Translations under genes and position numbers: made by a program
Shown: positions 7,439-64,000 of the stretch, piece by piece
Numbering within the stretch: the first letter of the stretch is position 1
How the letters are laid out: the number at the start of each line of letters is the position of its first letter
Source of the DNA: an uncultured Gemmataceae bacterium
GTDB lineage: Bacteria; Planctomycetota; Planctomycetia; Gemmatales; Gemmataceae
Length of the DNA stretch: 64,000 nucleotides
NCBI GenBank assembly: GCA_963750165.1
Contig: CAVVPN010000009.1
Span: 64,045-128,044, forward strand
Reading direction: 5' to 3'
The notes under the pieces: generated by a model
What the model was told of the DNA's origin: nothing
Databases searched by the model: none
Seen by the model: only the letters and a program-made list of their open reading frames with translations

Positions 7439-7505
7439 GGCGAGCGGCGCGGCGTCAGCCCGCCGGTCTGTGCGTCACCGGCGGGCTGACGCCGCGCCGC
7501 TCGCC
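7439..7505. repeat. palindromic repeat family A, copy 1
   Basis: 29-bp arm GGCGAGCGGCGCGGCGTCAGCCCGCCGGT plus its reverse complement. Confidence 0.9.
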
Positions 7506-28317: not shown

Positions 28318-28386
28318 GGCGAGCGGCGCGGCGTCAGCCCGCCGGTAACTTCGCGATACCGGCGGGCTGACGCCGCGCCGCTCGCC
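28318..28386. repeat. palindromic repeat family A, copy 2
   Basis: Same 29-bp arms as 7439, different loop. Confidence 0.9.
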
Positions 28387-31249: not shown

Positions 31250-31320
31250 GAGGCGAGCGGCGCGGCGTCAGCCCGCCGGTTCTCGCAGCACCGGCGCGCT
31301 GACGCCGCGCCGCTCGCCTC
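31250..31320. repeat. palindromic repeat family A, copy 3
   Basis: Same arms with one mismatch, just after the stop at 31243. Confidence 0.9.
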
Positions 31321-43378: not shown

Positions 43379-44918
43379 TGTTGAACGACAATAGAAATGT
43401 CCGGTCTTAACGCGATAGAAATGTCCTCCTTGCCCAGGCCAAGGAGGAGCCATGCCTATCGACGTGCTTCCCACAGACCGGATCGCCATGAGCCAGAAGG
43501 AACGCGATGTCCTCAAGGTCATGCACGGCGTCCTGCGCGGCGAGCGCACCCAGGCCGAGGCCGCTCGGGTGCTCGACCTCAGCACCCGCCAGGTCCGCCG
43601 CCTGCAGCGCAAACTCGAAGCGCACGGCGACGACGCCCTGGTCCACGGGCTGCGCGGCCAGCCTTCCAACCACCAGGCCGACGCCGCCCTCCGGCACGCC
43701 GTCCTGCGGGCCTACCGCCAGCGCTACGCCGACTTCGGCCCCCCCTTCGCCAGCGAGAAGCTGGCCCAGGAGGGGCTGGTGGTCTGCCCGCAGACGCTGC
43801 GCCGCTGGCTGCTGGCCGCCGGCCTGTGGCAGCGCCAGCGCCGCCGCGAGCAACACCGCAGCCGCCGGCCTCGGCGCGCCTGCTTCGGCGAGCTGGTCCA
43901 GATGGACGCCTCGATCCACGACTGGCTCGAGGGGCGCGGCGAGGAGGTGGTCTTGATCAGCTTGATCGACGACGCCACCAGCCGCGTGCTGGCGCGCTTC
44001 TACCCGGCGGCCACGACCGAGACGCACCTGGACCTGCTGGGCCGCTGGCTGCGCCGGTTCGGCCGGCCGTTGGAGTTGTACACCGACCGGCACAGCATCT
44101 TCGCGCCCCAGGACAAGGGCAAGGCCTTGCCGGACGCCGAGACCCAGTTCGGCCGGGCGCTGCGCGAGCTGGGCATCGGCCTGATCCGCGCCCACAGCCC
44201 GCAGGCCAAGGGGCGGCTCGAGCGCTCGTTCGGCACCGCCCAGGATCGGTGGGTCAAGGAACTGCGCCTGGCGGGGGTGACCACCTGCGCAGGCCAATGC
44301 GGTGCTGGAGCGGCTGTTGCCCGCGCACAACCGCCGCTTCACCCAGGCGGCGCGGCACGTCGGCGACGCGCACCGGCCGCTGGGGCCGGCGCACGACCTG
44401 GCGGCGATCCTGTCGCTCCAGGAGGAGCGCGTGGTCGCCAACGACTACACGATCCGCTTCCGCAACCGCTGCTATCAGTTGCTCAAGCCGATCTACCCGG
44501 GGCAGCGCGGCGGCAAAGTGGTGATCGAACTGCGGCTGGATGGGGAGCTGGCGATCCGCTTCGGCGGCCGCTATCTGAAGTACCGGGAGGTCCCAGCGGG
44601 GTGCCGCCCTGGGGGCTCTGCCCTCAGACCCCCGGAGTTTAACGCCTTGGCGGCCGATGCCAATGGGGAAGAAGAAAGCCCGGCCCCGGGTGAGGGGGCC
44701 GAGCCGACTGGCATGCAGCCGACCGGCGGGCGCTCGGGTCGCACTCCTGCGGAGCCCTATCCTCCCGACGGCGCGGGGGAAGATACCCCGAAGCGGCGCC
44801 GCGGTCCAGCCGAAGATCACCCCTGGCGGCAGCCGTTCAAAAAGCAAAAGTGACAACCCTGTGACAGCGGACATTTTTATTGTTCCCAAAATGCGGACAT
44901 TTCTATTGTTCCATGACA
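43379..44918 (+). mobile_element. insertion sequence, IS1202/ISNCY-like
   Basis: TGT...ACA ends; imperfect terminal inverted repeats, each with two ATA(G/A)AAATGTCC boxes; one DDE transposase inside. Confidence 0.85.
43452..44853 (+). CDS. DDE transposase (frameshift near 44290)
   Basis: HTH (QAEAARVLDLSTRQVRRL), GELVQMDASIHDW, IDDAT, YTDRHSIF, SPQAKGRLER; continues HNRRF...ERVVANDYTIRF. Confidence 0.9.
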
Positions 44919-50812: not shown

Positions 50813-50937
50813 CGGCTCTTCCGTTTTTAGGTGCGGGTTATCGGCCCGATTCTCAATTTTCCCTGGAAAAATCGTGGGGCACGTGATCGTCCGTTCACCG
50901 AAAATCCAGTGTTTCGCACCTAAAAACGGAAGAGCCG
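50813..50937. mobile_element. 125-bp MITE, copy 1
   Basis: Perfect 23-bp terminal inverted repeats CGGCTCTTCCGTTTTTAGGTGCG / CGCACCTAAAAACGGAAGAGCCG; non-coding; same sequence at 59171. Confidence 0.85.
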
Positions 50938-51101
50938 CTTACGACTGTCCAGTTTTTGGGGTCCACCTCACCGGTCTATTGACCGAGCCGCACTGGCGCG
51001 GTATCGTCAACTACGCGTTACCATGCGTGCACCCGCGGTCACACCTGCTGTTGGTGTTACTCCTTACCAGAGCAGCCCGCAACAAAAAGAAGGTATCGTC
51101 C

Positions 51102-52685
51102 ATGAACCCTTCACCCAAGAAATGGCATTCGATCCGAAATGATCAGCGTGTAGAAATTGGTCTCGTCCAGGTCGATATCGGCGACCGCGGCAAACATTAC
51201 GATCAAATCACCGACCTCCTTCTGACAAGCGCCAAGGATGAACTCAAGGACGCTCTGGTCCGGAGTGCCGAGCGTCGGGGTGGCAAACTCGCTTCCTGGG
51301 TGGACGACGGCGGCACGTTCATGTTCCAGATCGATGGTCCGGACAGTTTCCACAACTGCTGCGAGGCCGCGATTGAAATGTTGGAGCAGCTGCCGTCGAT
51401 CAAACAGGAGATGCAACTTTCTCCCGCTCTGGATCGCTTGATGATGGTTCGCATTGCCTGTGACACCGGAACCATCCCCCGCGATCCCGAAGCACACAAC
51501 TATCCGGGGGAGTTTGTTGATCAATTAAAAAAACACGAGCAGGCCGTGAGCGTGGAAAACAAAGTGACGATCACTGAACGCCTTTTCCGCAAACTCAACC
51601 CCCCCTGGAAATCCAAGTTCGTGAAGTGGAGGCACTCGGACGAACTGGGCGTTGACCTCTATACCGCCATCACGCTCGCGGTTGTAGTGGAGCAGCCAAC
51701 CCCGGCGGAAGACCCGCCGACGCCCGATCCCCGTATGCCAACACTGGGCCAAGAACCTCCCAAGGGGGCAAGATGGCGGGGGGTGGTGTCGGATGCACTC
51801 AAATCGCGCAAGCTGCAAACCGTCGGCGCGGTGGTCCTTTTGGCTCTCGTCATTTTCGGCTTGGTCCGTTTCTTGGCGGGGCCAACATCACCGCCAACGG
51901 TCCTGCCTCCACAGCCGGCGGTATGGACGGAACAGGTCCAATCGGAAGAATGGCGGAACTGGCGTAAACAGGTTCACGAGAAACTGTCCGTGGAAAAAGT
52001 GAACGAAAACACGTTGGCCGAAGCCTTCAAGATTAAACTCCCCGCGCGACCCGAACATGCGGCCGCGGCCCTGCGCCGGGACCAGGCAATTGCCGACGTG
52101 CTGATGAACTATTCAGGAGTAAAGGATACTCTCTGGAAACGGTTCGGAATCGACGAGCATAATTTTCTGGGTACGGGACTGTCGAAGCCATCCGGTGCGT
52201 TCGCGAATTATGGAGCGGCCTCCGTGCACGAGTATTTGATAAAGAACCTCCCTGACAACCATCCCTCCGTTTGGTGGCGGATACTGGACCCGAACAAAAT
52301 GACGATGACGGTCCAGGAGCTTTTTGAAAACGATCCAATGCCGGACGAAAAGAAGAAACAGCTGGTCGAGAATATCGTCCAGCGCGTGAAGGATAAGGAC
52401 ACGGCCAAACCCGCCGTGATACGGTTCGCACGGCTGAACGCCGTTGACTATTCGCGAAAACTGGGGCGCCCCGAAAGGCTCCGTGTGTTCGCCTCCAATT
52501 TAGCGGAGGTGTGGACCATAAAAGTTCCAATTGCCGCCGACCTTTCCGGACACACGTTCACCAAGGGCGACACCGTCTACGTCTGGGTCTTCTTGCCCCA
52601 TCACGCCGTGGAGGTGGTGCCGGCAACTTGGGGCGATGTGCTGATTCACCTGCCGGAGTGGCTGAGCGAATTTGACAAGAATTGA
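51102..52685 (+). CDS. class III nucleotidyl cyclase-like domain + TM + unknown external domain
   Basis: VQVDIG, GGKLASWVDDGG, VRIACDTG, NYPGEFVDQLKKHE, VTITERLF follow the cyclase motif order; TM VGAVVLLALVIFGLVRFLA. The longer 50448 start reads through the MITE and is spurious. Confidence 0.65.
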   Translation: MNPSPKKWHSIRNDQRVEIGLVQVDIGDRGKHYDQITDLLLTSAKDELKDALVRSAERRGGKLASWVDDGGTFMFQIDGPDSFHNCCEAAIEMLEQLPSIKQEMQLSPALDRLMMVRIACDTGTIPRDPEAHNYPGEFVDQLKKHEQAVSVENKVTITERLFRKLNPPWKSKFVKWRHSDELGVDLYTAITLAVVVEQPTPAEDPPTPDPRMPTLGQEPPKGARWRGVVSDALKSRKLQTVGAVVLLALVIFGLVRFLAGPTSPPTVLPPQPAVWTEQVQSEEWRNWRKQVHEKLSVEKVNENTLAEAFKIKLPARPEHAAAALRRDQAIADVLMNYSGVKDTLWKRFGIDEHNFLGTGLSKPSGAFANYGAASVHEYLIKNLPDNHPSVWWRILDPNKMTMTVQELFENDPMPDEKKKQLVENIVQRVKDKDTAKPAVIRFARLNAVDYSRKLGRPERLRVFASNLAEVWTIKVPIAADLSGHTFTKGDTVYVWVFLPHHAVEVVPATWGDVLIHLPEWLSEFDKN

Positions 52686-52907
52686 ACAGCGAGCCCAAGG
52701 CCACTTGGACTTGCTGAATTAATTCCTTGCATTCAGAGGGCAGCACTATTATACTCGGACTTTCTTCAAGTTCTTTGAATTGGAGGACTGGTCAAACCGG
52801 CTGGCCAAGTGTCGAAGAATCCTCCGCAGTGGCTCATGATCGGTGATTTCGCTTGATACCTGACTGCGGAACCTTTGCCCAGGCGGAAGCTTTCAGGAGC
52901 AATCGTA

Positions 52908-54800
52908 ATGGCCCATGATGCTTTCATCAGCTATTCGAGTAAGGATCAGACCGTCGCCAACGCCATTCGGGATGCCCTGGCAACGATGGGGATCATATGC
53001 TGGATGGCTTCCGACGACATCACGCCCGGCCAATCTTACCCCGATGCCCTCGCGACCGGCATCCGGGGGAGTCGAGCCCTGATCCTGGTGTACTCCAGGC
53101 ACGCCAATGAATCGAAACACGTCCCGCGCGAAGTGGAGCGGGCGGTCGATCTCGATATCCCCATCGTTTCCTTTCGCATCGAGCAGATCGAACCCTCGAG
53201 GGCGCTGGAGTATTTTCTCTCCAGCGTCCACCGGCTGGATGCGGCCAATCCACCCACGAAGGGCGATCTGGAACGCCTGGCCCAGGCGGTAAAAATGTGG
53301 CGCGACAAAAAGCGGGACAACCCAGGCCCAACCCCACCTGTCCTGCACCCGCTCCAGGTAGCGCTGTTGTACAAGCGACATGTCAAGGCGGATGAAGCGC
53401 TGTTGAAATCACTCGAGGCGGCGTTCGTCGCGCGCGGCTACCAGGTCTTCGTCGATCGCCACCTTGGGATCGGCGTGGAGTGGGCCAAAGAACTGGATCG
53501 GCGCATCCGTGCGTCGGACGCGGTGATCGCCTTGCTGTCCGCGGCGTCGGTACAAAGCGAGATGCTGGCCCATGAGCTACAGATTGCCCACGAGGAGGGG
53601 CAGAAGCGCCAGGGCAAGCCGCGGATCTTGCCCATCCGCGTTAACTTTGAAGGAGAACTCCCCTCCGAGATGGCGGGAGTCCTCAATCGCTTACAATACT
53701 TCCTGTGGAAGAACCCGCAAGATAATCCACGGCTCCTGACGGAAGTGGTGAGCGCCCTGGAGAAACCTACGGTTGAGCAACAACCCCCCGCGCCGCCGTC
53801 GGGAGTCCTGCCGCTGCATTCGCGGTATTACGTCGATCGGCCGGTGGACCAGGAAATGCAGGAAGCGATCCGCCGCCAGGACAGCGTGATTCGCATCCGC
53901 GGCGCTCGCCAGGTCGGCAAAACCTCCCTGTTAGCCCGCGGCCTCGAACAGGCACGGGGGCCCGGAACGCGGGTCGTCGTCACCGATTTTCAGCAACTCA
54001 ACAGTTCCGACCTCGTATCGGTGGAGACGTTGTTCCGCACGCTCGGGGAATGGGTTGCCGATGAATTGAAGCTCGATATCCCCCTCGACCAATTCTTTTC
54101 CTCGGGGCGCAACACCAGTAGGCGGTTCAATCGGTTTATCTGCCAGGAGGTCCTGGGGAGGATCAACGAACCCCTGGTCTGGGCCATGGACGAGGTGGAT
54201 CGCCTGTTTCCCTGCCCCTTCCGGAGCGAGGTGTTCGCGCTGTTTCGCTCCTGGCACAACGCGCGGGCGACGGAGCCGACGCAGCCGTGGCGGCGCTTGA
54301 CCCTGGTCATCACTTACGCCACCGAGGCCCAATTGTTGATTGAAGACCTGAATCAGTCGCCGTTCAATGTCGGCACTTCTCTGGTCCTGGACGATTTCAC
54401 CCTCGAGCAGATGACAGAATTGAATCGGCGTTACAACTCCCCGTTGCGGACCGCGGTGGAGTTGCAGGCGTTCGTCAATTTGGTGGGCGGCCATCCCTAC
54501 CTGGCCAACCGCGGCCTTTACGAGATGGTTCAGAAGGGCCTGGACCTGGCCGCCTTTCAGATACAAGCCGAGCGCGACGACGGAGTCTTCAACGATCATT
54601 TGCGCCGGCTGGTGATTTTGCTCTCCAGGGATGCCGGTTTGTGCGACGTGGTCCGCGGCATGCTACGCGGCCAGCCCAGGGCATCAACCGAACAATTCCA
54701 GCGCCTGCGCAGCGCCGGCGTACTCGCCGGCGAGTCGCTGGCCGAGATGCGCCTGCGCTGCCAGTTGTATACCAATTACCTCAAGAGGCACCTGCGATGA
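52908..54800 (+). CDS. TIR-TIR-AAA_35 (STAND-like) ATPase
   Basis: [10 protein letters not shown]...SKHVPREV; second [16 protein letters not shown]...[43 protein letters not shown]. Confidence 0.88.
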
Positions 54801-57038
54801 GCCCGACCCAGGCTGCCTTTTACGTCACCGGCGGGACGCTGACCAGCGACGCCCCCAGCTACGTGGAGCGGCAAGCAGACCATGACCTGTACGAAGGGCT
54901 GAAGCGCGGCGAGTTCTGTTCCGTCCTCACGTCGCGGCAAATGGGCAAGTCCTCGCTGATGGTCCGCACCGCGGTTCGGTTGCGTCAGGAACACACGGCA
55001 GTGGCCATCCTGGACCTGACCGCCATCGGTCAGAACTTAACCGCCGAGCAATGGTACGACGGTCTCCTGGGCCATATCGCCGGGCAGTTTCACCTGGACG
55101 ATGAACTGGAGGCATTCTGGCTAGCCAACGGCCGCCTGGGACCGCTGCAACGCTTCATGCGGGCCATCCGGGAAGTCGTGCTGCCGCATCGCACCGGCCA
55201 GGTCGTGTTCTTCGTGGACGAGATCGACGCGGTGCGCAGTCTGCCGTTCTCGACCGACGAATTCTTCGCCGCCATCCGGGAATGTTACAACCGCCGCTCC
55301 GAAGATGCGGAGTTTGGCCGTCTGACCTTCTGCTTGCTGGGCGTTGCGACTCCGTCCGACTTGATCCGGGATACGCGGACCACTCCGTTCAATGTCGGCC
55401 GGCGCATCGAATTGCGCGATTTCACAGACGCCGAGGCCGCCCCCCTGGCCAAAGGCCTACACCTGAAGGATGCCCAGGCCGCGAAACTGCTGCAGCGAAT
55501 CCTGAACTGGACCGGCGGCCATCCCTACCTGACGCAGCGACTCTGCTCGATGGTCGCCGACGACCCCAGTGCGACAAAGCCAGCGGACGTGGACCGATGC
55601 TGCGAGGAATTGTTCCTGTCTAACCGGGCCCGCGAACGGGATGACAACCTGCTCTTCGTTCGCGTCCGGCTGCTGCGCAGCGAGGTGGACCTGGCCGGGT
55701 TGCTCGAACTTTACCACCACGTCCGGCGGCATCCGGTGCCCGATGACGAAACCAATCCACTGATTGGTGTCCTGCGCCTGTCGGGCATCTCGCGCGTTGT
55801 GGAGGGATCGCTTCAGGTACGCAATCGAATTTATGAACGGGTGTTCGATGGGGAGTGGATCGAGGCGAACATGCCCGACGCGGAGAAACGCCGGCAGAGT
55901 CGGGCCTACCGCCGGGGGGTCTTGCGCGAGCGGAGTGTTGGGCGTCATTCTCGTCCTCGTCGCCGGCTTTTGCATCTGGAATTTGTGTGAAGCGCAGGGG
56001 GCCCTGCTCGAGAATGAGGTCTGCCGGAGCAACGAGTTCGCGGCCGCCCACGCGGCCAGCACCATCCAACGGCACCTGGAACGGATCGGCGACGCGGTCA
56101 GCGAAATAGCCGCCAGCCCGGAACTGGGCCAGTTGTGGCATGAGTACGAAAAGCTAGACCGGAACGAGGACGAGGTCGCTCGGCAGCCCTTGCAAGACTT
56201 CTTCGAGAAGACGCAAAAAATGTACAACGGAGACTCCAATAGATTCTTTAACGTGCGGCCGACCAGAGCGGGCCCCGGCCCCATCGCCAGCCTCACGCTG
56301 ATCGACGCGGAGGGACGGTTCCGGGCCTATTCGCCGCACAACAAGGTCGTGTGGAACAAGGTCTACGATGGCCGTGATTACTTCCGCGGGGCCAAGGATC
56401 TGGCAAACAAGTCCGGTGGCCGGCGGGTTTTTGTCTCGCGCGTCTTCCACTCGGAGATCGATCACCGTTACCGGCTGGCCGTTTCCGTCCCGTTCTGCCC
56501 GAAAGGCCGTTTCGCCGGCGTGGTGACGGCCACCGTGGTCACGGACGCGACGTTCGGGCTGGACCACTTGCACGACCAGCGTCACAAGGTGGCCCTGCTG
56601 GCCGCGCAGGACCCGAACCCCCCGCGCGGCCCTCCCGTCACTCCCGAACCGCCCCCCGCCTATCTCATTCTCCTGCACCCGTGCTACGCCTACGGCGACA
56701 CGCCGCTCCGGTTCCCCGACGACCAGTTGCCGAGTTTCGACCCGCCGGATGCGGACGGGGCCGCTCTCCATGCGGTCAAAACCTTCTACCTGGACCCGGC
56801 CGGGCAGCGTGACCCCGCTTACGCCGGCCGCTGGCTGGCCGGGTTTGCCAAGGTTGAAAACTCGCAAATGATCGTGATCGTCCAGCAGCGTCACGATATG
56901 GCCGTGGCACCCTATCAGGGGTTCCTGTGGCAACTCCCCTTATGGGTGCTTGGTATGGGGGCTGTGGGATTGGTCCTGGCCTGGTTGCTGCGCCGTACCG
57001 GACCGCGGTCGCTTCTGGGTAGCCTTCGCGGAAGTTGA
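54797..57038 (+). CDS. AAA_35 ATPase-TM-dCache-like sensor-TM (frameshift near 55925)
   Basis: [37 protein letters not shown]; after the shift a TM, then GRDYFRGA...VFVSRVFHS...LAVSVP (Cache-like) and a second TM. The paralog indicates a GC lost from a GCGCGCG run. Confidence 0.78.
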
Positions 57039-57083
57039 GAATCTCCGTCGGTTTTATTCGAGTTCCCTCAAGAGACACTTGCC

Positions 57084-59129
57084 ATGAGCCCGGGCCAGAC
57101 CCCTTTTTACGTCACCGGCGGAACCCTGACGAGCGACGCCCCCAGCTACGTGGAGCGCCAGGCCGATCACGACCTGTATGAGGGACTGAAGCGCGGCGAG
57201 TTCTGCTACGTCCTCACGTCGCGGCAAATGGGCAAATCGTCGCTGATGGTCAGCACCTCGGTTCGCTTGCGGGTGGAGAACACGGCGGTGGCCATCCTGG
57301 ACCTGACCGCCATCGGCCGGAATTTGACCGCCGAGCAGTGGTACGATGGTCTCCTGAGTCACATCGCCCTGCAGTTCGACCTGGATCAAGAACTGGAGCA
57401 TTTCTGGCTGGCGAAGGCCCGACTGGGGCCGTTGCAGCGGTGGATGCTGGCGCTCCGCGAAATCGTGCTGCCGCGCTTTAATGGCCAGGTCGTGATCTTC
57501 GTGGACGAGATCGACGCGGTTCGTGGTTTGCCGTTCTCGACCGACGAATTCTTCGCCGCCATCCGGGAATGTTACAACCGCCGCTCCGAGGATGCGGAGT
57601 TTGGCCGTCTGACCTTCTGCTTGCTGGGAGTTGCGACTCCGTCCGACTTGATCCGGGATACGCGGACCACTCCGTTCAACGTCGGCCGGCGGATTGAATT
57701 GCGCGATTTCAGCAAAGCGGAAGCCGGCCCTCTCAGCCGGGGGCTGCGGCGGGAGCAGGCGCTGGCAGAGAAACTGCTGGAGCGCATCCTGCACTGGACG
57801 GGGGGCCAACCGTACCTGACGCAGCGGTTATGCCAGGCGGTGGCCGATAATCGCGGCGTGACGCAACCGGCCGAGGTGGATCGAATCTGCGCGGACCTGT
57901 TCTTGTCCAACCGGGCGCGCGAACGGGATGACAACCTGCTGTTCGTGCGCGATCGGATGCTGCACAGTGAGGTGGACCTGGCCGGGTTGCTCGACCTCTA
58001 CACCCACGTCCTCCGAAAGACCGTGCGCGATGACGAATCCAATCCGCTGATCAGCGTCCTGCGTTTGTCGGGTATCTCGTGCGTGGTCGAGGGGCGGCTC
58101 CAGGTGCGCAATCGGATTTACCAACGGGTGTTCGATCGGAAATGGATCGAGGCGAACATGCCCGACGCCGAAAAACGCAGGCAACTCAAGGCGTTTCGCC
58201 GCGGCGTCCTGCGCGCGAGCGTGGCGCTGGGCGCGATTCTCATTATCGTCACCAGCCTGGGGCTGATTGCCCTGGAGCGAACGATTGAAGCAGAGAAGGC
58301 CAACGAAGACTTGCAGGTGCAGCGGAACCAAAAAGAGGCGGCGCTGATTGAAGCGCGGAAGGCCAATGAAGAATTGCAGGCGCAGCAGAAGGAGAAAGAG
58401 TTGCGGCGCGGTCAAATCCTTCGTCGAGTGGAGGCTAAACTCCGAGAAAGACCTCGAACCGATAAATCGTCGCCGCACCCCGTCACGGTGACCGAGAAAC
58501 GACTGGTCAACAACTTTGCGGAATTCAACATCCTTGAGGATTCCTTTGAGGTTGATCTGAGAGACTGGAAACCAATTACTCCCGATGCACCACTCCGTAG
58601 CGCGGGTTATACGACGAGCCGCCACATGAAACTGGTGAAGCTAAGAGACACGGATACTTTATGGATAGAAGCCCGGACCTCTGGACGCGATCTCGTTCGT
58701 CGGGCTCTACAGCCCAACCCGCAAACGGCGAAAGTCGTGGCGCTGAAAAAACCTGTCCTGGTTGGAAAGCAGGCGATGATTTCCAGTTTCCTGGGTTTTG
58801 ACACCAGGGACATACCGATTAACGAAGAATTCGATTGTCATTCCATCACAACTTATTGGGATGCTTTACAACGTCGCGAGGAGCAGTGGTTTGGAGTCAT
58901 TGGGTATCCAGGTTCCTATAAGGTTTCGATGCTGTTGCTTTTCCCGGAGGACAAGCCCTATTCGACGATTGCATTAATGACTGCGAAACGAGGGGAGCCG
59001 AACCCACGAGTTTACACCGGGAAAATGATTGTTTATGAATCTCCCGACCACCGCTGGTTATACTGGGAGATTCCAAGCCCGGAGGCGGAGCACGTATACC
59101 AACTCCATTGGCGGTGGAGCATCGATTGA
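57084..59129 (+). CDS. AAA_35 ATPase-TM-coiled coil-unknown beta-rich domain
   Basis: N-terminal ~375 aa nearly identical to the previous gene; [40 protein letters not shown] repeat; lower-GC C-terminal domain. Confidence 0.85.
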
Positions 59130-59170
59130 TCGGATTGAAGATTTGCCACGGAGATGACATCGAAGAAAAC

Positions 59171-59295
59171 CGGCTCTTCCGTTTTTAGGTGCGGGTTATC
59201 GGCCCGATTCTCAATTTTCCCTGGAAAAATCGTGGGGCACGTGATCGTCCGTTCACCGAAAATCCAGTGTTTCGCACCTAAAAACGGAAGAGCCG
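59171..59295. mobile_element. 125-bp MITE, copy 2
   Basis: Identical by eye to 50813-50937, same orientation. Confidence 0.85.
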
Positions 59296-59360: not shown

Positions 59361-60050
59361 ATGACCGAAGAAGATTGGGTAGTTGGCGACCACCAGCAGA
59401 AGATGCTTGCCCTCCTCGTAAGTCGGCATGCCAGTGAACGGAAACTTCGCCTGTTCGCTTGCGCCTGCTGTCGCCGTATCTGGAATCAGTACAAACGAAG
59501 TGAACCTTCCCGCCGTGCTGTGGAAGTTGCTGAACGCTACGCAGATGGTCAAGCGACGGAGGGAGAGCTACATATTGCAAAGGAAGCCGCCCAGAATGCT
59601 TGGGCTGCTACACGGATGTCAGTGGTTCAGGGTCAGGCAAGGAGAGCAGCGACATATGCAGCCTCCAAGAACATAGAGCAACTTGCATACACGGCAACAG
59701 CTGCCTACATGGGTGTGTTCCAGAGTAGAGAGGTAGAGGTTCGTGAGGCTGCGCAACAGGCAGAGAGGAATACCATTCCTGAGCGCATCCGGTGCGTATT
59801 CGACAACCCCTTCCGCCCCGTCACTCTGAACCCAGCATGGCAGACGCCCAATGTCGTTGCTCTTGCGACTGCCGCCTACGATGAGCGTATCATGCCGTCA
59901 GGAACACTCGACACCGCACGTCTCGCCGTCCTTGCCGACGCCCTTGAGGAAGCCGGGTGCGGCAACGAAGACATACTGAACCACCTACGCCAGACCGGCG
60001 TTCATGTCCGTGGCTGCTGGGTCGTGGACCTGATCCTGGGCAAGGAGTGA
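59361..60050 (+). CDS. array gene 1, 'RKLRLFACACCR...RGCWVVDLILGKE' family
   Basis: MTEEDW start, conserved termini; the upstream ORF extension is MITE read-through. Confidence 0.8.
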   Translation: MTEEDWVVGDHQQKMLALLVSRHASERKLRLFACACCRRIWNQYKRSEPSRRAVEVAERYADGQATEGELHIAKEAAQNAWAATRMSVVQGQARRAATYAASKNIEQLAYTATAAYMGVFQSREVEVREAAQQAERNTIPERIRCVFDNPFRPVTLNPAWQTPNVVALATAAYDERIMPSGTLDTARLAVLADALEEAGCGNEDILNHLRQTGVHVRGCWVVDLILGKE

Positions 60051-60054
60051 CGCC

Positions 60055-60765
60055 ATGACCGAAGCAGAATGGCGGGCGTGTACCGATCCAGAAAGGATGC
60101 TTGAGTTTCTGCGCGGCAAAGCAACCGACCGCAAGTTACGGTTGTTCGCCTGCGCCTGGGTTCGTCGCATGTGGAACGTAGTTGAAGACGAAAGGAGTCG
60201 GGCGGCTGTCGAGGTGGCTGAACGGACTGCCGATGGGCTTGCAACTGCTGGAGAGTTAGAATCTGCTCGCACGGCAGCACACGAAGCAGCATTTAATGGG
60301 ATGGTGGCTGGCTACGCTGCAATGGCAACGGCTCTCCCATGGGGGGATGGTGCTGCTGAGGCTACCGCCGATCCAAATGACAACTATTATGATTCCTCGG
60401 TCGAAGCCCTCTACTATGACTGGAGTCTGGCTCGGCAAGCAGACTACTCCGCTTCTGATCAGCAAGCCTGGATGATGGAGCGTGCGGCTCAGGCTGGTCT
60501 TCTCCGAGACATCTTCGCCAACCCCTTCCGCAGCGTCGCCCCGAAGTCATCTTGGCACATTTCGACCGTCCTTGCTCTCGCCCAAGTCGCTTACGACAAC
60601 CGCCTTCTGCCAACTGGGACGCTTGAGCCTGCCTACCTCGCCGTCCTTGCCGACGCCCTTGAAGAGACTGGTTGCGACAACAAAGACATCCTGAGTCACC
60701 TGCGCCAGCCGGGGGTACATGTGCGTGGGTGCTGGGCGCTAGACCTGATCTTGGGTAAGGAGTGA
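60055..60765 (+). CDS. array gene 2, same family
   Basis: MTEAEWRACTDP...RKLRLFACA...LLRDIFANPFR...LADALEETGC...RGCWALDLILGKE. Confidence 0.85.
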   Translation: MTEAEWRACTDPERMLEFLRGKATDRKLRLFACAWVRRMWNVVEDERSRAAVEVAERTADGLATAGELESARTAAHEAAFNGMVAGYAAMATALPWGDGAAEATADPNDNYYDSSVEALYYDWSLARQADYSASDQQAWMMERAAQAGLLRDIFANPFRSVAPKSSWHISTVLALAQVAYDNRLLPTGTLEPAYLAVLADALEETGCDNKDILSHLRQPGVHVRGCWALDLILGKE

Positions 60766-60769
60766 TGCC

Positions 60770-61513
60770 ATGACCGAGCAAGAGTGGCTGGAATGCGTTG
60801 ATCCGACGCCAATGCTAGGGTACTTGCAAGGAAAGGCGAGCGACCGGAAACTGGGCCTATTCGCTTGTGCTTGCTGCCGTCGCATCTTTCATCTGATCGT
60901 GCATCCCGTGAGTCGAGCGGCTGTGGATGTGGCTGAACGCTTTTCAGACGGGCTAGCAACCGATGAAGAACGGGACCGTATTTACGGCGAGGCAGATGAC
61001 ATCCGGTGCTTGCTTGGTGGAGTAGGGACAGGCGATCTGGAGCAAGATGTTGAGGAAGAGTTTGGCGGTATCATCGAAGCCGCCTCCATCACGCCTGACG
61101 TGGCTGCTGCCGCTGCGGACGAGGCATGGGGCTGTGCCGAGCCTGAACCGGAGCATACTCCGGGGATTGGTGCCTCAGCTGCCGAAGCAGTCGCCAACTT
61201 CGCTTTGAGAGATGCCGAAATCTCTGAGCGTGCTGCCCAGACGATGTTGTTGAGAGACATGATCGGCAACCCTTTCCGCCCTACCCTCATTGACCCCGTT
61301 TGGCTCACGCCGTCCTTGACCAGCCACGCCGCAGCCGCTTATCAAGAGCGTTCAATGCCTTCAGGTGAACTCGACCCAACCTGTCTCGCCATCCTCGCAG
61401 ACGCCCTTGAAGAAGCCGGGTGTGACAACGAGGACATCCTGAACCATTTGCGCCAACCGGGTGTGCATGTGCGTGGCTGCTGGGTCGTGGACCTGATCCT
61501 GGGCAAGGAGTGA
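60770..61513 (+). CDS. array gene 3, same family
   Basis: MTEQEWLECVDP...RKLGLFACACCRR...GNPFRP...RGCWVVDLILGKE. Confidence 0.85.
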   Translation: MTEQEWLECVDPTPMLGYLQGKASDRKLGLFACACCRRIFHLIVHPVSRAAVDVAERFSDGLATDEERDRIYGEADDIRCLLGGVGTGDLEQDVEEEFGGIIEAASITPDVAAAAADEAWGCAEPEPEHTPGIGASAAEAVANFALRDAEISERAAQTMLLRDMIGNPFRPTLIDPVWLTPSLTSHAAAAYQERSMPSGELDPTCLAILADALEEAGCDNEDILNHLRQPGVHVRGCWVVDLILGKE

Positions 61514-61517
61514 TGCC

Positions 61518-62255
61518 ATGACGGAGAGCGAGTGGCTCACCAGCAAACATTGGTTCTTGCTGGTCCTGCACCTACAGCGGACTTGTCGAGTTGTCCAGCG
61601 AAAAGCAGGGCGGCGGAAGTTGCGGCTTCTTGCATGCGGGTGTTGCCGTCAGGTGTGGAATCTGCTTGTTCAGGCACAGAGCAGAGAAGCCTTGGAGGTT
61701 GTCGAGAGATTCGCTGACGGGTTGGCAAGCGATGAGCAACGCCGTGAAGCAGAGAGGAGTGCAGGTCTGGTAGCGATGCAGTTCTGGCAAACATCGGAGG
61801 AACTGGAGGGCTATGAATGCCGAGAAGCGCGCCGCCATTATTCCGCCACTGCTGGAGTGCAGCGATCCGCAGCGACAGAGGACTTGTTCAAGGCGGTTGG
61901 GGATGCTGTTGCGAGGGTTGCAGACATCATCGGCAAATACGGAGAGGATACGAGCGGTGCAGAGAAGTGGCTGGACGACATGGTAACTCTGGTGCGGGAC
62001 ATCTTTGGCAACCCTTTCCGCCCCGTCACCCTGAAGCCGCCTTGGAAGACGCCGACGATCCTTGCACTTGCCACCGCCGCCTATGAGAACCGCATCCTGC
62101 CTGCCGGGACGCTTGAGCCTGCCCGCCTCGCTATCCTTGCCGACGCCCTTGAAGATGCCGGGTGTGACAACGAGGACATCCTGAACCACCTGCGTCAGCC
62201 CGGCGTGCATGTCCGTGGCTGCTGGGTCGTGGACCTGATCCTGGGCAAGGAGTGA
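61518..62255 (+). CDS. array gene 4, same family
   Basis: MTESEWL...RKLRLLACGCCRQ...GNPFRPV...RGCWVVDLILGKE. Confidence 0.85.
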   Translation: MTESEWLTSKHWFLLVLHLQRTCRVVQRKAGRRKLRLLACGCCRQVWNLLVQAQSREALEVVERFADGLASDEQRREAERSAGLVAMQFWQTSEELEGYECREARRHYSATAGVQRSAATEDLFKAVGDAVARVADIIGKYGEDTSGAEKWLDDMVTLVRDIFGNPFRPVTLKPPWKTPTILALATAAYENRILPAGTLEPARLAILADALEDAGCDNEDILNHLRQPGVHVRGCWVVDLILGKE

Positions 62256-62543: not shown

Positions 62544-62582
62544 ACAGTCGCCGCAAGTCCTTGCTGTTCTTTCACTTCCAAA

Positions 62583-62624
62583 TGGGCGTTACAGGATTTG
62601 AACCTGTGACCCCTAGCGTGTCGA
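62583..62624 (-). other. 3' half of tRNA-Val(GAC): att-site duplication
   Basis: Reverse complement TCGACACGCTAGGGGTCACAGGTTCAAATCCTGTAACGCCCA gives anticodon loop, T arm and acceptor 3' strand; the 5' half is absent. Confidence 0.8.
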
Positions 62625-62767
62625 TGCCCAAAAATCCTACTGCCGTTCAAGCCGAAAACCACTTCCTATCAATACTTTACAGCATGGACTGCCACTTTGC
62701 AAGCTCGTGCGAGGGCATTCCATTCCGCGCGAAAAACCGCGGAATTTCCGCGGTTTGCTGAAGGGCT

Positions 62768-62797
62768 GCGGAAGACGCGCGGAAGACTTGCGGAAGG
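62768..62797. repeat. three GCGGAAG repeats at 11-bp period (arm-type sites?)
   Basis: GCGGAAGAC gc GCGGAAGAC tt GCGGAAGG. Confidence 0.55.
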
Positions 62798-62825
62798 GAT
62801 CCGCGGCCACAGTCCCCCCGGCAAA

Positions 62826-63135
62826 CTACCCTTTCCGCGGCCGGCCTCGCTTCTTGCCTGGTGTCGGTTCCTGCGCCGGCTCGTCTGGAGCTTTCGGCGG
62901 TCGTCCTCTCCCGGTCTGCGGTCGGGGGCGCTGGGGCCTCAAGGAACGCCAGGCACGTCACCCCGAGGGCGTCCGCCAAGGCGACGGCGGTTTCCCACGA
63001 AGGGGATCGGTCCCCGCGCTCCAGCCGGGAAACCCCGTCGATGGTCAGGTGCGCCCGGTCGGCCAGTTCCTTCTGACTTAATCCCGCCTGCTCGCGCAGT
63101 TCCCGCAACCGCCCCGCAAAGTAGTGCGCGCCGAT
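62826..63135 (-). CDS. XRE-family HTH repressor with AT-hook tail (frameshift near 62925; start uncertain)
   Basis: FAGRLRELREQAGLSQKELA...VSRLERGDRSPSWETAVALADALGV; the shifted frame gives GRGRPPK...KKRGRPRKG*. Confidence 0.75.
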
Positions 63136-63180
63136 GATTATCCTTCCCAATCGGCACGAAAAGAAATTCCAGAATAAATA

Positions 63181-63220
63181 AGACAATCGTCTTGACAAAG
63201 CAAGACTACTGTCTTATTAT
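63181..63220 (+). promoter_or_regulatory. strong sigma70 promoter overlapped by two AGAC-N4-GTCT operator palindromes
   Basis: TTGACA(63192)-17 nt-TATTAT; AGACaatcGTCT at 63181 and AAGACtactGTCTT at 63202. Confidence 0.75.
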
Positions 63221-63391
63221 AACATTGTCGCCATTGGTGACAAGGTTCTTTGAAAACTCGGGAGGCAGGGCGTCCGGCAGGACCGAGGCGACGCCCACAG
63301 AGAGGAGGCAACCGGGTCCGAAACGAAAGTGGACCCGCGACGGCTGCAACCGTCCGGGTCCGTGGCATTCCTTCTTGCGAAAGGAACTGCA

Positions 63392-63712
63392 ATGTCTACT
63401 GCAACGAAAACCCGCCGCCGCGTCAAGCCCACTCGCACCATCCGCCTGAACCTGAAGCCGTTCGACGGCAACCCGGGCGTGGTGCGGATCACGGTCGGGA
63501 AGGAAACCGCGGACTATCTCCTGACCGAGATTCCGGCCGACTTCGGCCGCGGGTTCAAGGTCGAGAAGATGGGCGACGACGCCGACGGGGCTGCTTACCA
63601 CGTCAACATCGACGGCGACAACCGGACGTGCGAGTGCAAGGGGTTCGGCCGCTGGCACCATTGCCGTCACGCGGACGGGCTGGCGGCGCTGGTCAAGGCC
63701 GGCAAGGTGTAA
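63392..63712 (+). CDS. small SWIM zinc-finger protein
   Basis: YHV...TCECKGF...CRH (CxC...CxH); AAGGA RBS. Confidence 0.75.
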   Translation: MSTATKTRRRVKPTRTIRLNLKPFDGNPGVVRITVGKETADYLLTEIPADFGRGFKVEKMGDDADGAAYHVNIDGDNRTCECKGFGRWHHCRHADGLAALVKAGKV

Positions 63713-63774
63713 CCACGGGACCACGGCAGGGGGAAACGCCCGCCCCCTGCCACCCAGCGCGAAAGGTGGTCCCT

Positions 63775-64000
63775 GTGTTACTACGTCATGCGACGGTGGT
63801 TCGCAATTTGCCCAGCATCCTGAAAGGCGGCTTGCTCTGCTCCAAGAGCAAGGGCCGGCTGAAAGTGGTCTGGCTGCACACCCCGAACAAGACCACTTGG
63901 GCAACCCTCCACACGGTTCGCCGTCACGGCGGCCGCGTTGAGGCGGTCGTTGTGCTGGAAGTGTCCGTGCCGCGGCGCTGGCTGCGGCGGTCGAGGAAAG
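63775..64000 (+). CDS. ADP-ribosyltransferase-fold-like protein (partial, runs off the window)
   Basis: GTG start after AAGGTGG; MLLRHATVVRNLPSILKGGLL...VVWL...VVVLEV resembles DarT/KptA-type N-termini. Confidence 0.5.
   Translation, partial: MLLRHATVVRNLPSILKGGLLCSKSKGRLKVVWLHTPNKTTWATLHTVRRHGGRVEAVVVLEVSVPRRWLRRSRK

Follow-up and report, generated by a model that had tools for sequence, protein, structure and literature searches.

What might a bacterium gain from four co-oriented genes that set a membrane-anchored cyclase-fold protein beside a soluble ATPase with two TIR domains and two membrane-anchored ATPases, all within a bracket of two identical miniature inverted-repeat transposable elements (MITEs)? 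The question is raised by a locus, here termed the module (genes g1, g2, g3 and g4; coordinates are collected in Table 1), in a 64,000-nucleotide stretch of an uncultured Gemmataceae genome (C9:64045-128044 of an assembly of 9.6 Mb in 12 contigs; this whole stretch is ‘the window’ below), for which an initial annotation had proposed a paired, NLR-like system of immunity or signalling. Calling of open reading frames (ORFs) and a Pfam scan confirmed the four genes and their common orientation, and the AAA_35 family (PF14516) is matched by g2 (250.7 bits), by the ATPase frame of g3 (105.6 bits) and by g4 (94.1 bits), all above the gathering cut-off of 27 bits; these are the only three AAA_35 genes of the genome. 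The reading that we favour, at a probability of roughly 0.58, is that the module encodes a relay from transmembrane receptors to TIR domains, with paired STAND-like AAA_35 ATPases as its basis, an arrangement that probably carries outside signals to an enzyme of the immune type.

At the core of the module are two types of ATPase gene, termed ‘A’ (a soluble effector-AAA_35 ATPase, such as g2) and ‘B’ (an AAA_35 ATPase followed by a transmembrane (TM) helix and an ectodomain, such as g3 and g4). This A/B pair is widespread and conserved. In a survey of 95 related loci, which include near-duplicates and are not independent of one another, 22 were excluded because they are truncated, and an A gene lies adjacent to a B gene in 64 of the 73 that could be evaluated. 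The two architectures are complementary: 100 of 101 A proteins end in their ATPase, and a single one of the 101 has a TM helix, whereas 57 of 60 B proteins have such a helix after the ATPase. A-type matches number 2683 at an E value of 1e-20 among 8000 scored candidates; related loci occur on 37 plasmid records, and one A/B locus was found on a viral contig. The heads of the A proteins vary widely (kinase 11, cyclase 10, BTAD 8, OmpR-type winged helix-turn-helix 4, CHAT 2, TIR 1, EAD7 1 and none 5, among the 42 of 63 that were scanned), as do the tails of 44 B proteins (WD40 17, a TPR cluster 11, a PEGA cluster 7, unassigned 4, and one each of FGE, LRR, kinase, GAF-SpoIIE and carboxypeptidase-regulatory-like), the TPR and PEGA clusters having been typed from two members each.

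STAND NTPases carry an hhGRExE-like motif ahead of Walker A and a GxP motif in their helical domain. Across 72 aligned A rows and 52 aligned B rows, Walker A (G-K-[ST]), Walker B (D-E) and the GxP residues (G238-P240 in A, G241-P243 in B) are invariant, and the hhGRExE-like position is held by an equally invariant YxxRxxD variant (Y18 and R21 in A; Y22, R25 and D28 in B) rather than by the canonical GRE. Sequence profiles of the ATPases retrieve P-loop fragments of RecA and KaiC, or nothing, and the A and B ATPases are homologous to each other (hhalign probability 100, 24% identity). A complex predicted between A and B scored 0.55, against 0.00 for the best control, with contacts that agree to at least 90% between runs and a partner pLDDT of at least 83; of 157 solved complexes, 116 reach the mark for such scores, as do 2 of 215 mismatches, and at or below 0.60 there are 18 solved complexes together with both mismatches, a range in which the predicted A-B contact is to be regarded as weak. 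The idea that the ATPases work as sensor and helper draws support from the adjacency and the complementary architectures, and to that lesser degree from the predicted contact.

On the effector side, both Walker motifs of g2 are intact (GARQVGKT and DEVD), and the glutamates previously marked in its tandem TIR domains, E75 (HVPREV) and E223 (LAHEL), proved to be unchanged in all 36 TIR-TIR homologues that were aligned; 171 of the 172 distinct segments aligned for the second TIR domain have glutamate at its catalytic position. This conservation suggests TIR domains of the NAD-cleaving type.

On the receptor side, hydropathy and the positive-inside rule would place the sensor portions of the B proteins outside the inner membrane. 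The ATPases of g3 and g4 are 82% identical, and their ectodomains differ. For g3, which had been described as an ATPase-TM-Cache-TM gene, the order of domains and the two TM helices hold up; a single intact ORF does not, and the Cache assignment is a weak match between the two helices (dCache_1, E value 9e-4, 19.2 bits against a cut-off of 45 bits), and several kinase-fused homologues of this ectodomain carry a precomputed PF02743 label. The ectodomain of g4 was modelled with AlphaFold2 (AF2) at a pLDDT of 92.1 and matches 6s7o_E (VIA Z score 11.1, root-mean-square deviation 3.2 Å, 163 residues aligned); it is predicted to be a beta-sandwich like the N-terminal domain of aminopeptidase N and the lumenal domain of ribophorin-I, a likeness of fold that shows no function. 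In the Atlas this ectodomain matched only unnamed clusters, at values under 0.9.

Both ectodomains are also found on proteins of other kinds. Among the 40 longer matches to the g3 ectodomain, 39 are receptor Ser/Thr kinases, and the 11 non-self matches to that of g4 include 4 kinases and 1 cyclase. In trees of the two ectodomains, which were rooted at the midpoint from a query-biased sample, the ATPase-fused forms make up one group of tips among the kinase-fused forms (support 100/97 and 90/94), which suggests that the ectodomains were transferred from receptor kinases to ATPase-fused receptors. In a poorly resolved tree of B ATPases, g3 groups with WD40-tailed B proteins of another genome, G050 (bootstrap 80), and apart from its Cache orthologue, which hints at shuffling or conversion and no more.

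The initial annotation asked whether homologues of the TIR-TIR ATPase occur together with the cyclase and the receptors, and they do. Of the 266 other genomes searched within the order, two, G050 and G180, carry a near-full-length g1 (a lower bound, obtained in a stricter first look), and both show the gene order g1-g2-B; these two are also the only other genomes with AAA_35 above the cut-off. The G050 locus consists of g1, a TIR-TIR A gene, an extra bare A gene and three B genes (two with WD40 tails and one orthologue of g4), and that of G180 of g1, a TIR-TIR A gene and one B gene with an FGE-sulfatase tail. The ATGA overlap reported between g2 and g3 is confirmed at 54797-54800; the A gene is coupled to the first B gene in the same manner in G180, and by an ATG overlap in G050. 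The extra A-type ATPase of G050 (L116, 11028-12017, minus strand) is headless, has an altered Walker A (RHSGKT) and lies between the TIR-TIR A gene and the first receptor; it might serve as a decoy or as a spacer subunit. Upstream of the syntenic module in that genome (L116-L117) lies a series of large genes for kinase-TM-LRR receptors.

Three more loci were inferred from proteins of one and the same source that share a contig size: orthologues of g1, g2 and g3 (19,102 bases); part of g1 with g2 and g4 (370,069 bases); and a TIR-kinase-TM protein bearing the g1 ectodomain with g2 and g4 (13,914 bases). In all, 17 proteins of the g1 family were looked up, 3 of which were paired with an A protein in this way and 9 of which lie on contigs of less than 7 kb; a class-wide search gave no further g1 loci. 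From two genomes examined directly and three inferred loci, the module appears to add a lineage-restricted subtype to the A/B family, composed of a cyclase-fold receptor, a TIR-TIR A protein and one to three B proteins.

In an AF2 model (pLDDT 85.6), the N-terminal domain of g1 has the fold of a class III nucleotidyl cyclase, as judged by a Foldseek E value of 1e-8 and by its match to CyaB (3r5g; VIA Z score 18.2, root-mean-square deviation 2.8 Å over 176 aligned residues) and, on par with the matches to adenylyl cyclases, to the PycC structure 7r65 (Z 17.7). Hydropathy and flanking charge indicate one TM helix with basic residues on its N-side. The designation of g1 as a class III cyclase-like membrane protein is therefore sound for the fold and the membrane anchor, and does not extend to a clearly active cyclase. 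At the residues that we take to correspond to the cyclase motifs (D25, D69, D140 and K144), both metal-binding aspartates are kept, and Asp and Lys replace Asn and Arg. Cyclase activity is doubtful because just 4 of 16 rows in the g1 subfamily, which appears degenerate, hold both acids (D/E25 together with D69); the most distant 11 of 34 aligned rows retain D, D, N (10/11) and K. The resemblance of this domain to the cyclase heads that are fused to A proteins is remote (probability 8).

The ectodomain of g1 is conserved, with E377, N382, R441 and G483 invariant in 71 rows. No Pfam family is common to more than 2 of its 91 aligned members, a PDB sequence search returned no match and the Atlas no usable one, and the fold-match lists for g1 are filled by cyclases; the fold of the ectodomain is left unassigned and is not claimed to be new. 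An ART/TNT-like identity was considered and found no support (hhalign probability 0.4 against a single TNT-family sequence, a weak test). The same ectodomain occurs on stand-alone membrane proteins encoded downstream of FGE-sulfatase genes at L119, L120 and L121 (G157, G251 and G155); at L121 a kinase-TIR-nSTAND1 gene lies beside the two, and these settings point to conflict-type loci. Further cyclase-like proteins (P0160-P0263) make up an unannotated family with conserved D, D, N and K residues, which is fused to NUDIX, HAD, radical SAM, Vut_1, TIR or TPR domains. Inactive cyclases are noted in predicted conflict systems in PMC7159879.

Taken together, these features can be arranged into a mechanism. 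The B proteins g3 and g4 would keep their ATPases on the cytoplasmic side and expose an exchangeable sensor beyond the inner membrane; binding of a ligand or a disturbance of the envelope, the kinds of cue that we infer, would switch the B ATPase, which would then recruit soluble g2 into a hetero-oligomer and so cluster both of its TIR domains. The clustered TIR domains would cleave NAD+, with an outcome of either depletion (and thus arrest or death) or an ADP-ribose-type messenger, and several B receptors could converge on one A protein. Within such a scheme g1 would be a co-inherited third receptor, its cyclase-fold domain probably being an enzyme of low activity or a modulator that binds nucleotides, and would represent, in trans, what is found elsewhere as fusions of a cyclase head to TIR-AAA_35 (10 of the 42 scanned A heads). 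A more specific version, less likely than not, is a bacterial Toll-like signalosome: an expandable set of transmembrane receptors, in which a STAND ATPase has been grafted onto ectodomains from receptor Ser/Thr kinases, would dock on one TIR-TIR amplifier and convert threats or small molecules sensed on the outside into NAD+-based immunity or death, with g1 as a nucleotide-gated second input.

Several observations weigh against the relay. An A gene stands without an adjacent B gene in 9 of the 73 loci, and the controls of the complex prediction contained neither A-A nor B-B pairs, hence hetero- and homo-oligomers are not separated by it. Reading frames are broken in several places in the G050 and G180 loci, and g3 is frameshifted in the module itself. 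Five g1-family proteins on contigs of more than 20 kb (P0122, P0125, P0130, P0137 and P0147) found no partner among the best 120 of the 2683 A matches; because of these five, g1 may be facultative and occur apart from g2. Finally, none of the 95 broader loci contains g1, the Cache domain or the g4 ectodomain, which marks the four-gene form as a subtype of narrow occurrence.

If the relay is accepted in outline, it must still be asked which purpose it serves. Cache domains usually bind small molecules, and this fits poorly with anti-phage abortive infection in the sense of Avs and NLR proteins, by which the receptors would detect components of phage adsorption or injection and g2 would kill by depleting NAD+. 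A role in defence finds no backing in context: at an E value of 1e-25, PADLOC matched 4 of 137 neighbouring ORFs (of 153 picked around 19 loci, a count with no control set), two of the four being kinase domains and one lacking a passing stretch, and those proteins of the module that were searched gave TIR domain-level matches or none in PADLOC, NCBIfam and PHROGs, with no whole-protein defence match in PADLOC or NCBIfam. Moreover, 12 of the 42 scanned A heads are DNA-binding domains of transcription regulators (BTAD or OmpR-type). We regard the anti-phage reading as unlikely, despite a patchy distribution (AAA_35 above the cut-off in 3 of 267 genomes of the order, the source genome included), the low GC content of the module, the plasmid records, and TIR, CHAT and EAD7 heads combined with WD40, TPR, LRR and FGE tails, a repertoire typical of predicted conflict systems (PMC8195603, section 7). 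The contrary proposal, that the array is an equivalent of receptor Ser/Thr kinases that conveys environmental signals without killing, its TIR domains acting as scaffolds or makers of a regulatory messenger outside any conflict, accounts for the ectodomains shared with (and nested among) receptor kinases and for the dominance of kinase, cyclase and transcription heads (11, 10 and 12 of 42). It too is rather unlikely, since rarity, patchiness and the fast swapping of tails within one subtype (WD40, FGE, Cache and aminopeptidase-N-like) fit conflict genes better and no receiver of a messenger was identified in the locus. The role of the receptor-to-TIR relay is most likely a conflict or envelope-stress response, as favoured by patchiness, the turnover of tails and the TIR, CHAT and EAD heads; a phage trigger is not indicated.

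Two further explanations concern the state and the mobility of the module. It might be a decaying island that is losing its function, with g3 a true pseudogene, a notion prompted by the g3 frameshift and by insertion sequence (IS) fragments upstream. The break is identified as such because a DNA alignment with the paralogue g4 shows a 2-nucleotide gap in a run of GC dinucleotides; an intact orthologue of 744 residues (P0285) aligns end to end with the two g3 frames at 78% and 58% identity, and on both sides of the break the GC pattern of coding sequence is the same. Since broken frames are common in this assembly (34 frameshift junctions across 545 paralogue loci, which cover 165,907 aligned residues, or about 1 per 15 kb, real pseudogenes counted in), an assembly error is plausible, and with g1, g2 and g4 intact and their motifs conserved, decay is improbable. 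It is likewise very unlikely that the MITEs mobilised all four genes as a composite transposon driven by ISL3. The bracket is real, as had been stated: the two repeats are 100% identical and enclose the genes tightly (about 165 nucleotides before g1), transposase genes of ISL3 are present in the genome, and the MITE ends are common to full ISL3 elements at C11:491683-493142 and C12:1304863-1306322. Among the 11 copies of the MITE in the genome, 8 have 8-bp target duplications; both module copies and one further copy have none, so that the module pair lacks what 8 of the other 9 possess, a hint of rearrangement. The outer flanks of the pair, however, do not match as a target duplication, no MITE occurs in the syntenic loci of G050 and G180 or in any locus from another genome, and when 11 copies are placed uniformly at random, about 9% of trials bring two of them within 8.4 kb of each other. 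Because there is no shared duplication and the syntenic loci have no MITEs, the bracketing is probably incidental to the system rather than a feature of it.

One frame of the MITE has no stop codon, and neighbouring ORFs are lengthened through it, a trap for gene callers: ORFs of 745 residues (from 50448) and 298 residues (from 59154) were rejected as genes because both read through it, and g1 homologues begin at the position equivalent to 51102. The module has a GC content of 0.60, against 0.68 over window bases 1-43000. The four-gene locus is rare and was probably acquired laterally, on the grounds that AAA_35 is confined to those 3 of 267 genomes and that no full g2 orthologue was found among 40 relatives. 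Around it lie the elements in the lower rows of Table 1. The tandem paralogues belong to a family with about 20 loci in the source genome, one member of which adjoins g1 in G050; the single copy that was checked matches only phrog_18326, of unknown function. The tRNA-Val-like fragment, on which ARAGORN made no call, adjoins a regulator gene at the contig end, and this region is possibly the att site of an integrated element.

Table 1. Positions (in the window) of the four genes, the flanking MITEs and neighbouring elements
Feature	Position	Strand	Description
MITE copy 1	50814..50936 (repeat 50813-50937)		123 bp; terminal inverted repeats of ~22-23 bp; ISL3-derived; without target-site duplication
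g1	51102..52685	+	527 aa; class III nucleotidyl-cyclase fold ~5-194, Pro-rich linker, predicted TM ~236-258, conserved ectodomain ~270-527
g2	52908..54800	+	630 aa; A-type, soluble; TIR_2 6-114, TIR 161-259, AAA_35 297-626 (E 2e-74)
g3	54797..57038	+	B-type, AAA_35-TM-Cache-like-TM; frameshifted near 55924-55929; ATPase frame 54797-55990; separate TM-Cache-TM frame 55764-57038
g4	57084..59129	+	681 aa; B-type, AAA_35-TM-coiled stretch-predicted beta-sandwich ectodomain
MITE copy 2	59172..59294 (repeat 59171-59295)		Same sequence as copy 1; ~40 nucleotides past the g4 stop; without target-site duplication
IS481-like transposase	43452-44853		Helix-turn-helix (HTH) and rve domains; broken across two frames
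Tandem paralogues	59361-62255	+	4 copies of a family of ~230-250 aa; 3' parts 70-74% identical in DNA
tRNA-Val-like fragment	~62560-62620	-	3' fragment
XRE-type HTH regulator and small ORFs	62677-64000		At the contig end
REP-like repeats	7439-7505, 28320-28386, 31252-31318		Long GC-rich palindromes

How does such a relay compare with systems that are already known? The NAIP-NLRC4 inflammasome, the sensor/helper NLR pairs of plants and the Toll-like receptors would offer parallels for its logic, in which many sensor ATPases serve one executor and an outside cue leads to the clustering of TIR domains; the ATPases there belong to another STAND clade, and the likeness is one of analogy that does not imply shared ancestry. 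Pycsar and Thoeris recall the module in that a class III cyclase fold adjoins TIR domains, and g1 matches PycC; unlike them, g1 is membrane-anchored with an ectodomain and its subfamily is degenerate, g2 carries no cNMP-binding domain (Pfam scan), and the TIR domains are fused to an ATPase. To our knowledge, the bacterial STAND immune receptors tested so far each consist of one chain and do their sensing within the cytoplasm. Section 5 of PMC13581612 is in line with that, and the Avs and bNACHT proteins treated there share with the module the logic of effector, STAND ATPase and sensor, with sensor types (WD40, FGE) that recur in the tails of B proteins. Here, in contrast, effector and sensor occupy separate ATPase chains, the sensor lies past a TM helix, and neither a whole-protein PADLOC match nor a defence context was found; the single-chain Avs layout is not seen, g2 ending at its ATPase and g3 and g4 having no N-terminal effector. 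Sensor domains predicted to be periplasmic are mentioned for STAND proteins in PMC10907252.

A two-gene nSTAND2 operon (PMC8195603) is closer in one respect, since adjacent STAND genes are predicted to form a hetero-multimer; one ATPase is inactive there, and GT4 or HEPN domains accompany it, whereas both types in the module have Walker motifs and one is membrane-anchored, and the Pfam scan of the module gave no nSTAND2 match. The module also resembles the Npun2340/2341 family (MNS clade), STAND-like ATPases in which TIR, kinase, caspase-like and EAD domains form the heads and FGS-type domains the tails; similar A/B pairs exist in Nostoc (L035 and L036), and the FGE-sulfatase on the G180 receptor may be compared with those tails. 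The section consulted presents that family as a single-chain effector-NTPase-FGS protein, unlike the soluble/membrane pair, the array of receptors on one TIR-TIR protein and the cyclase-fold receptor found here. The statement in the initial annotation that the combination is not a named system is apt for the subtype, and needs qualifying for the A/B core, which resembles this named family. Neither the pair nor the four-gene subtype is described in the literature searched (titles and the starts of abstracts, with Leipe 2004 and the supplements of PMC8195603 and PMC7159879 lying outside the search), in which ‘Npun2340’ is named by one paper and PF14516 by none; the terms AAA_35, PF14516, Npun and MNS are absent from the supplements of PMC13581612.

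Set against these systems, the A/B family would split sensor and effector over two ATPases and carry the sensor beyond the membrane, and the four-gene subtype would add several receptors for each TIR executor, whose ectodomains would be exchangeable with the ones carried by receptor kinases and cyclases. The module offers a compact test case, with an NAD+ read-out, for a very large family, and it draws attention to the g1 ectodomain as a conserved domain without an assigned fold. As judged from its sequence, it is a conserved variant of the STAND conflict and signalling ATPases, in which the receptor-array subtype and the exchange of ectodomains with kinases are the new elements.

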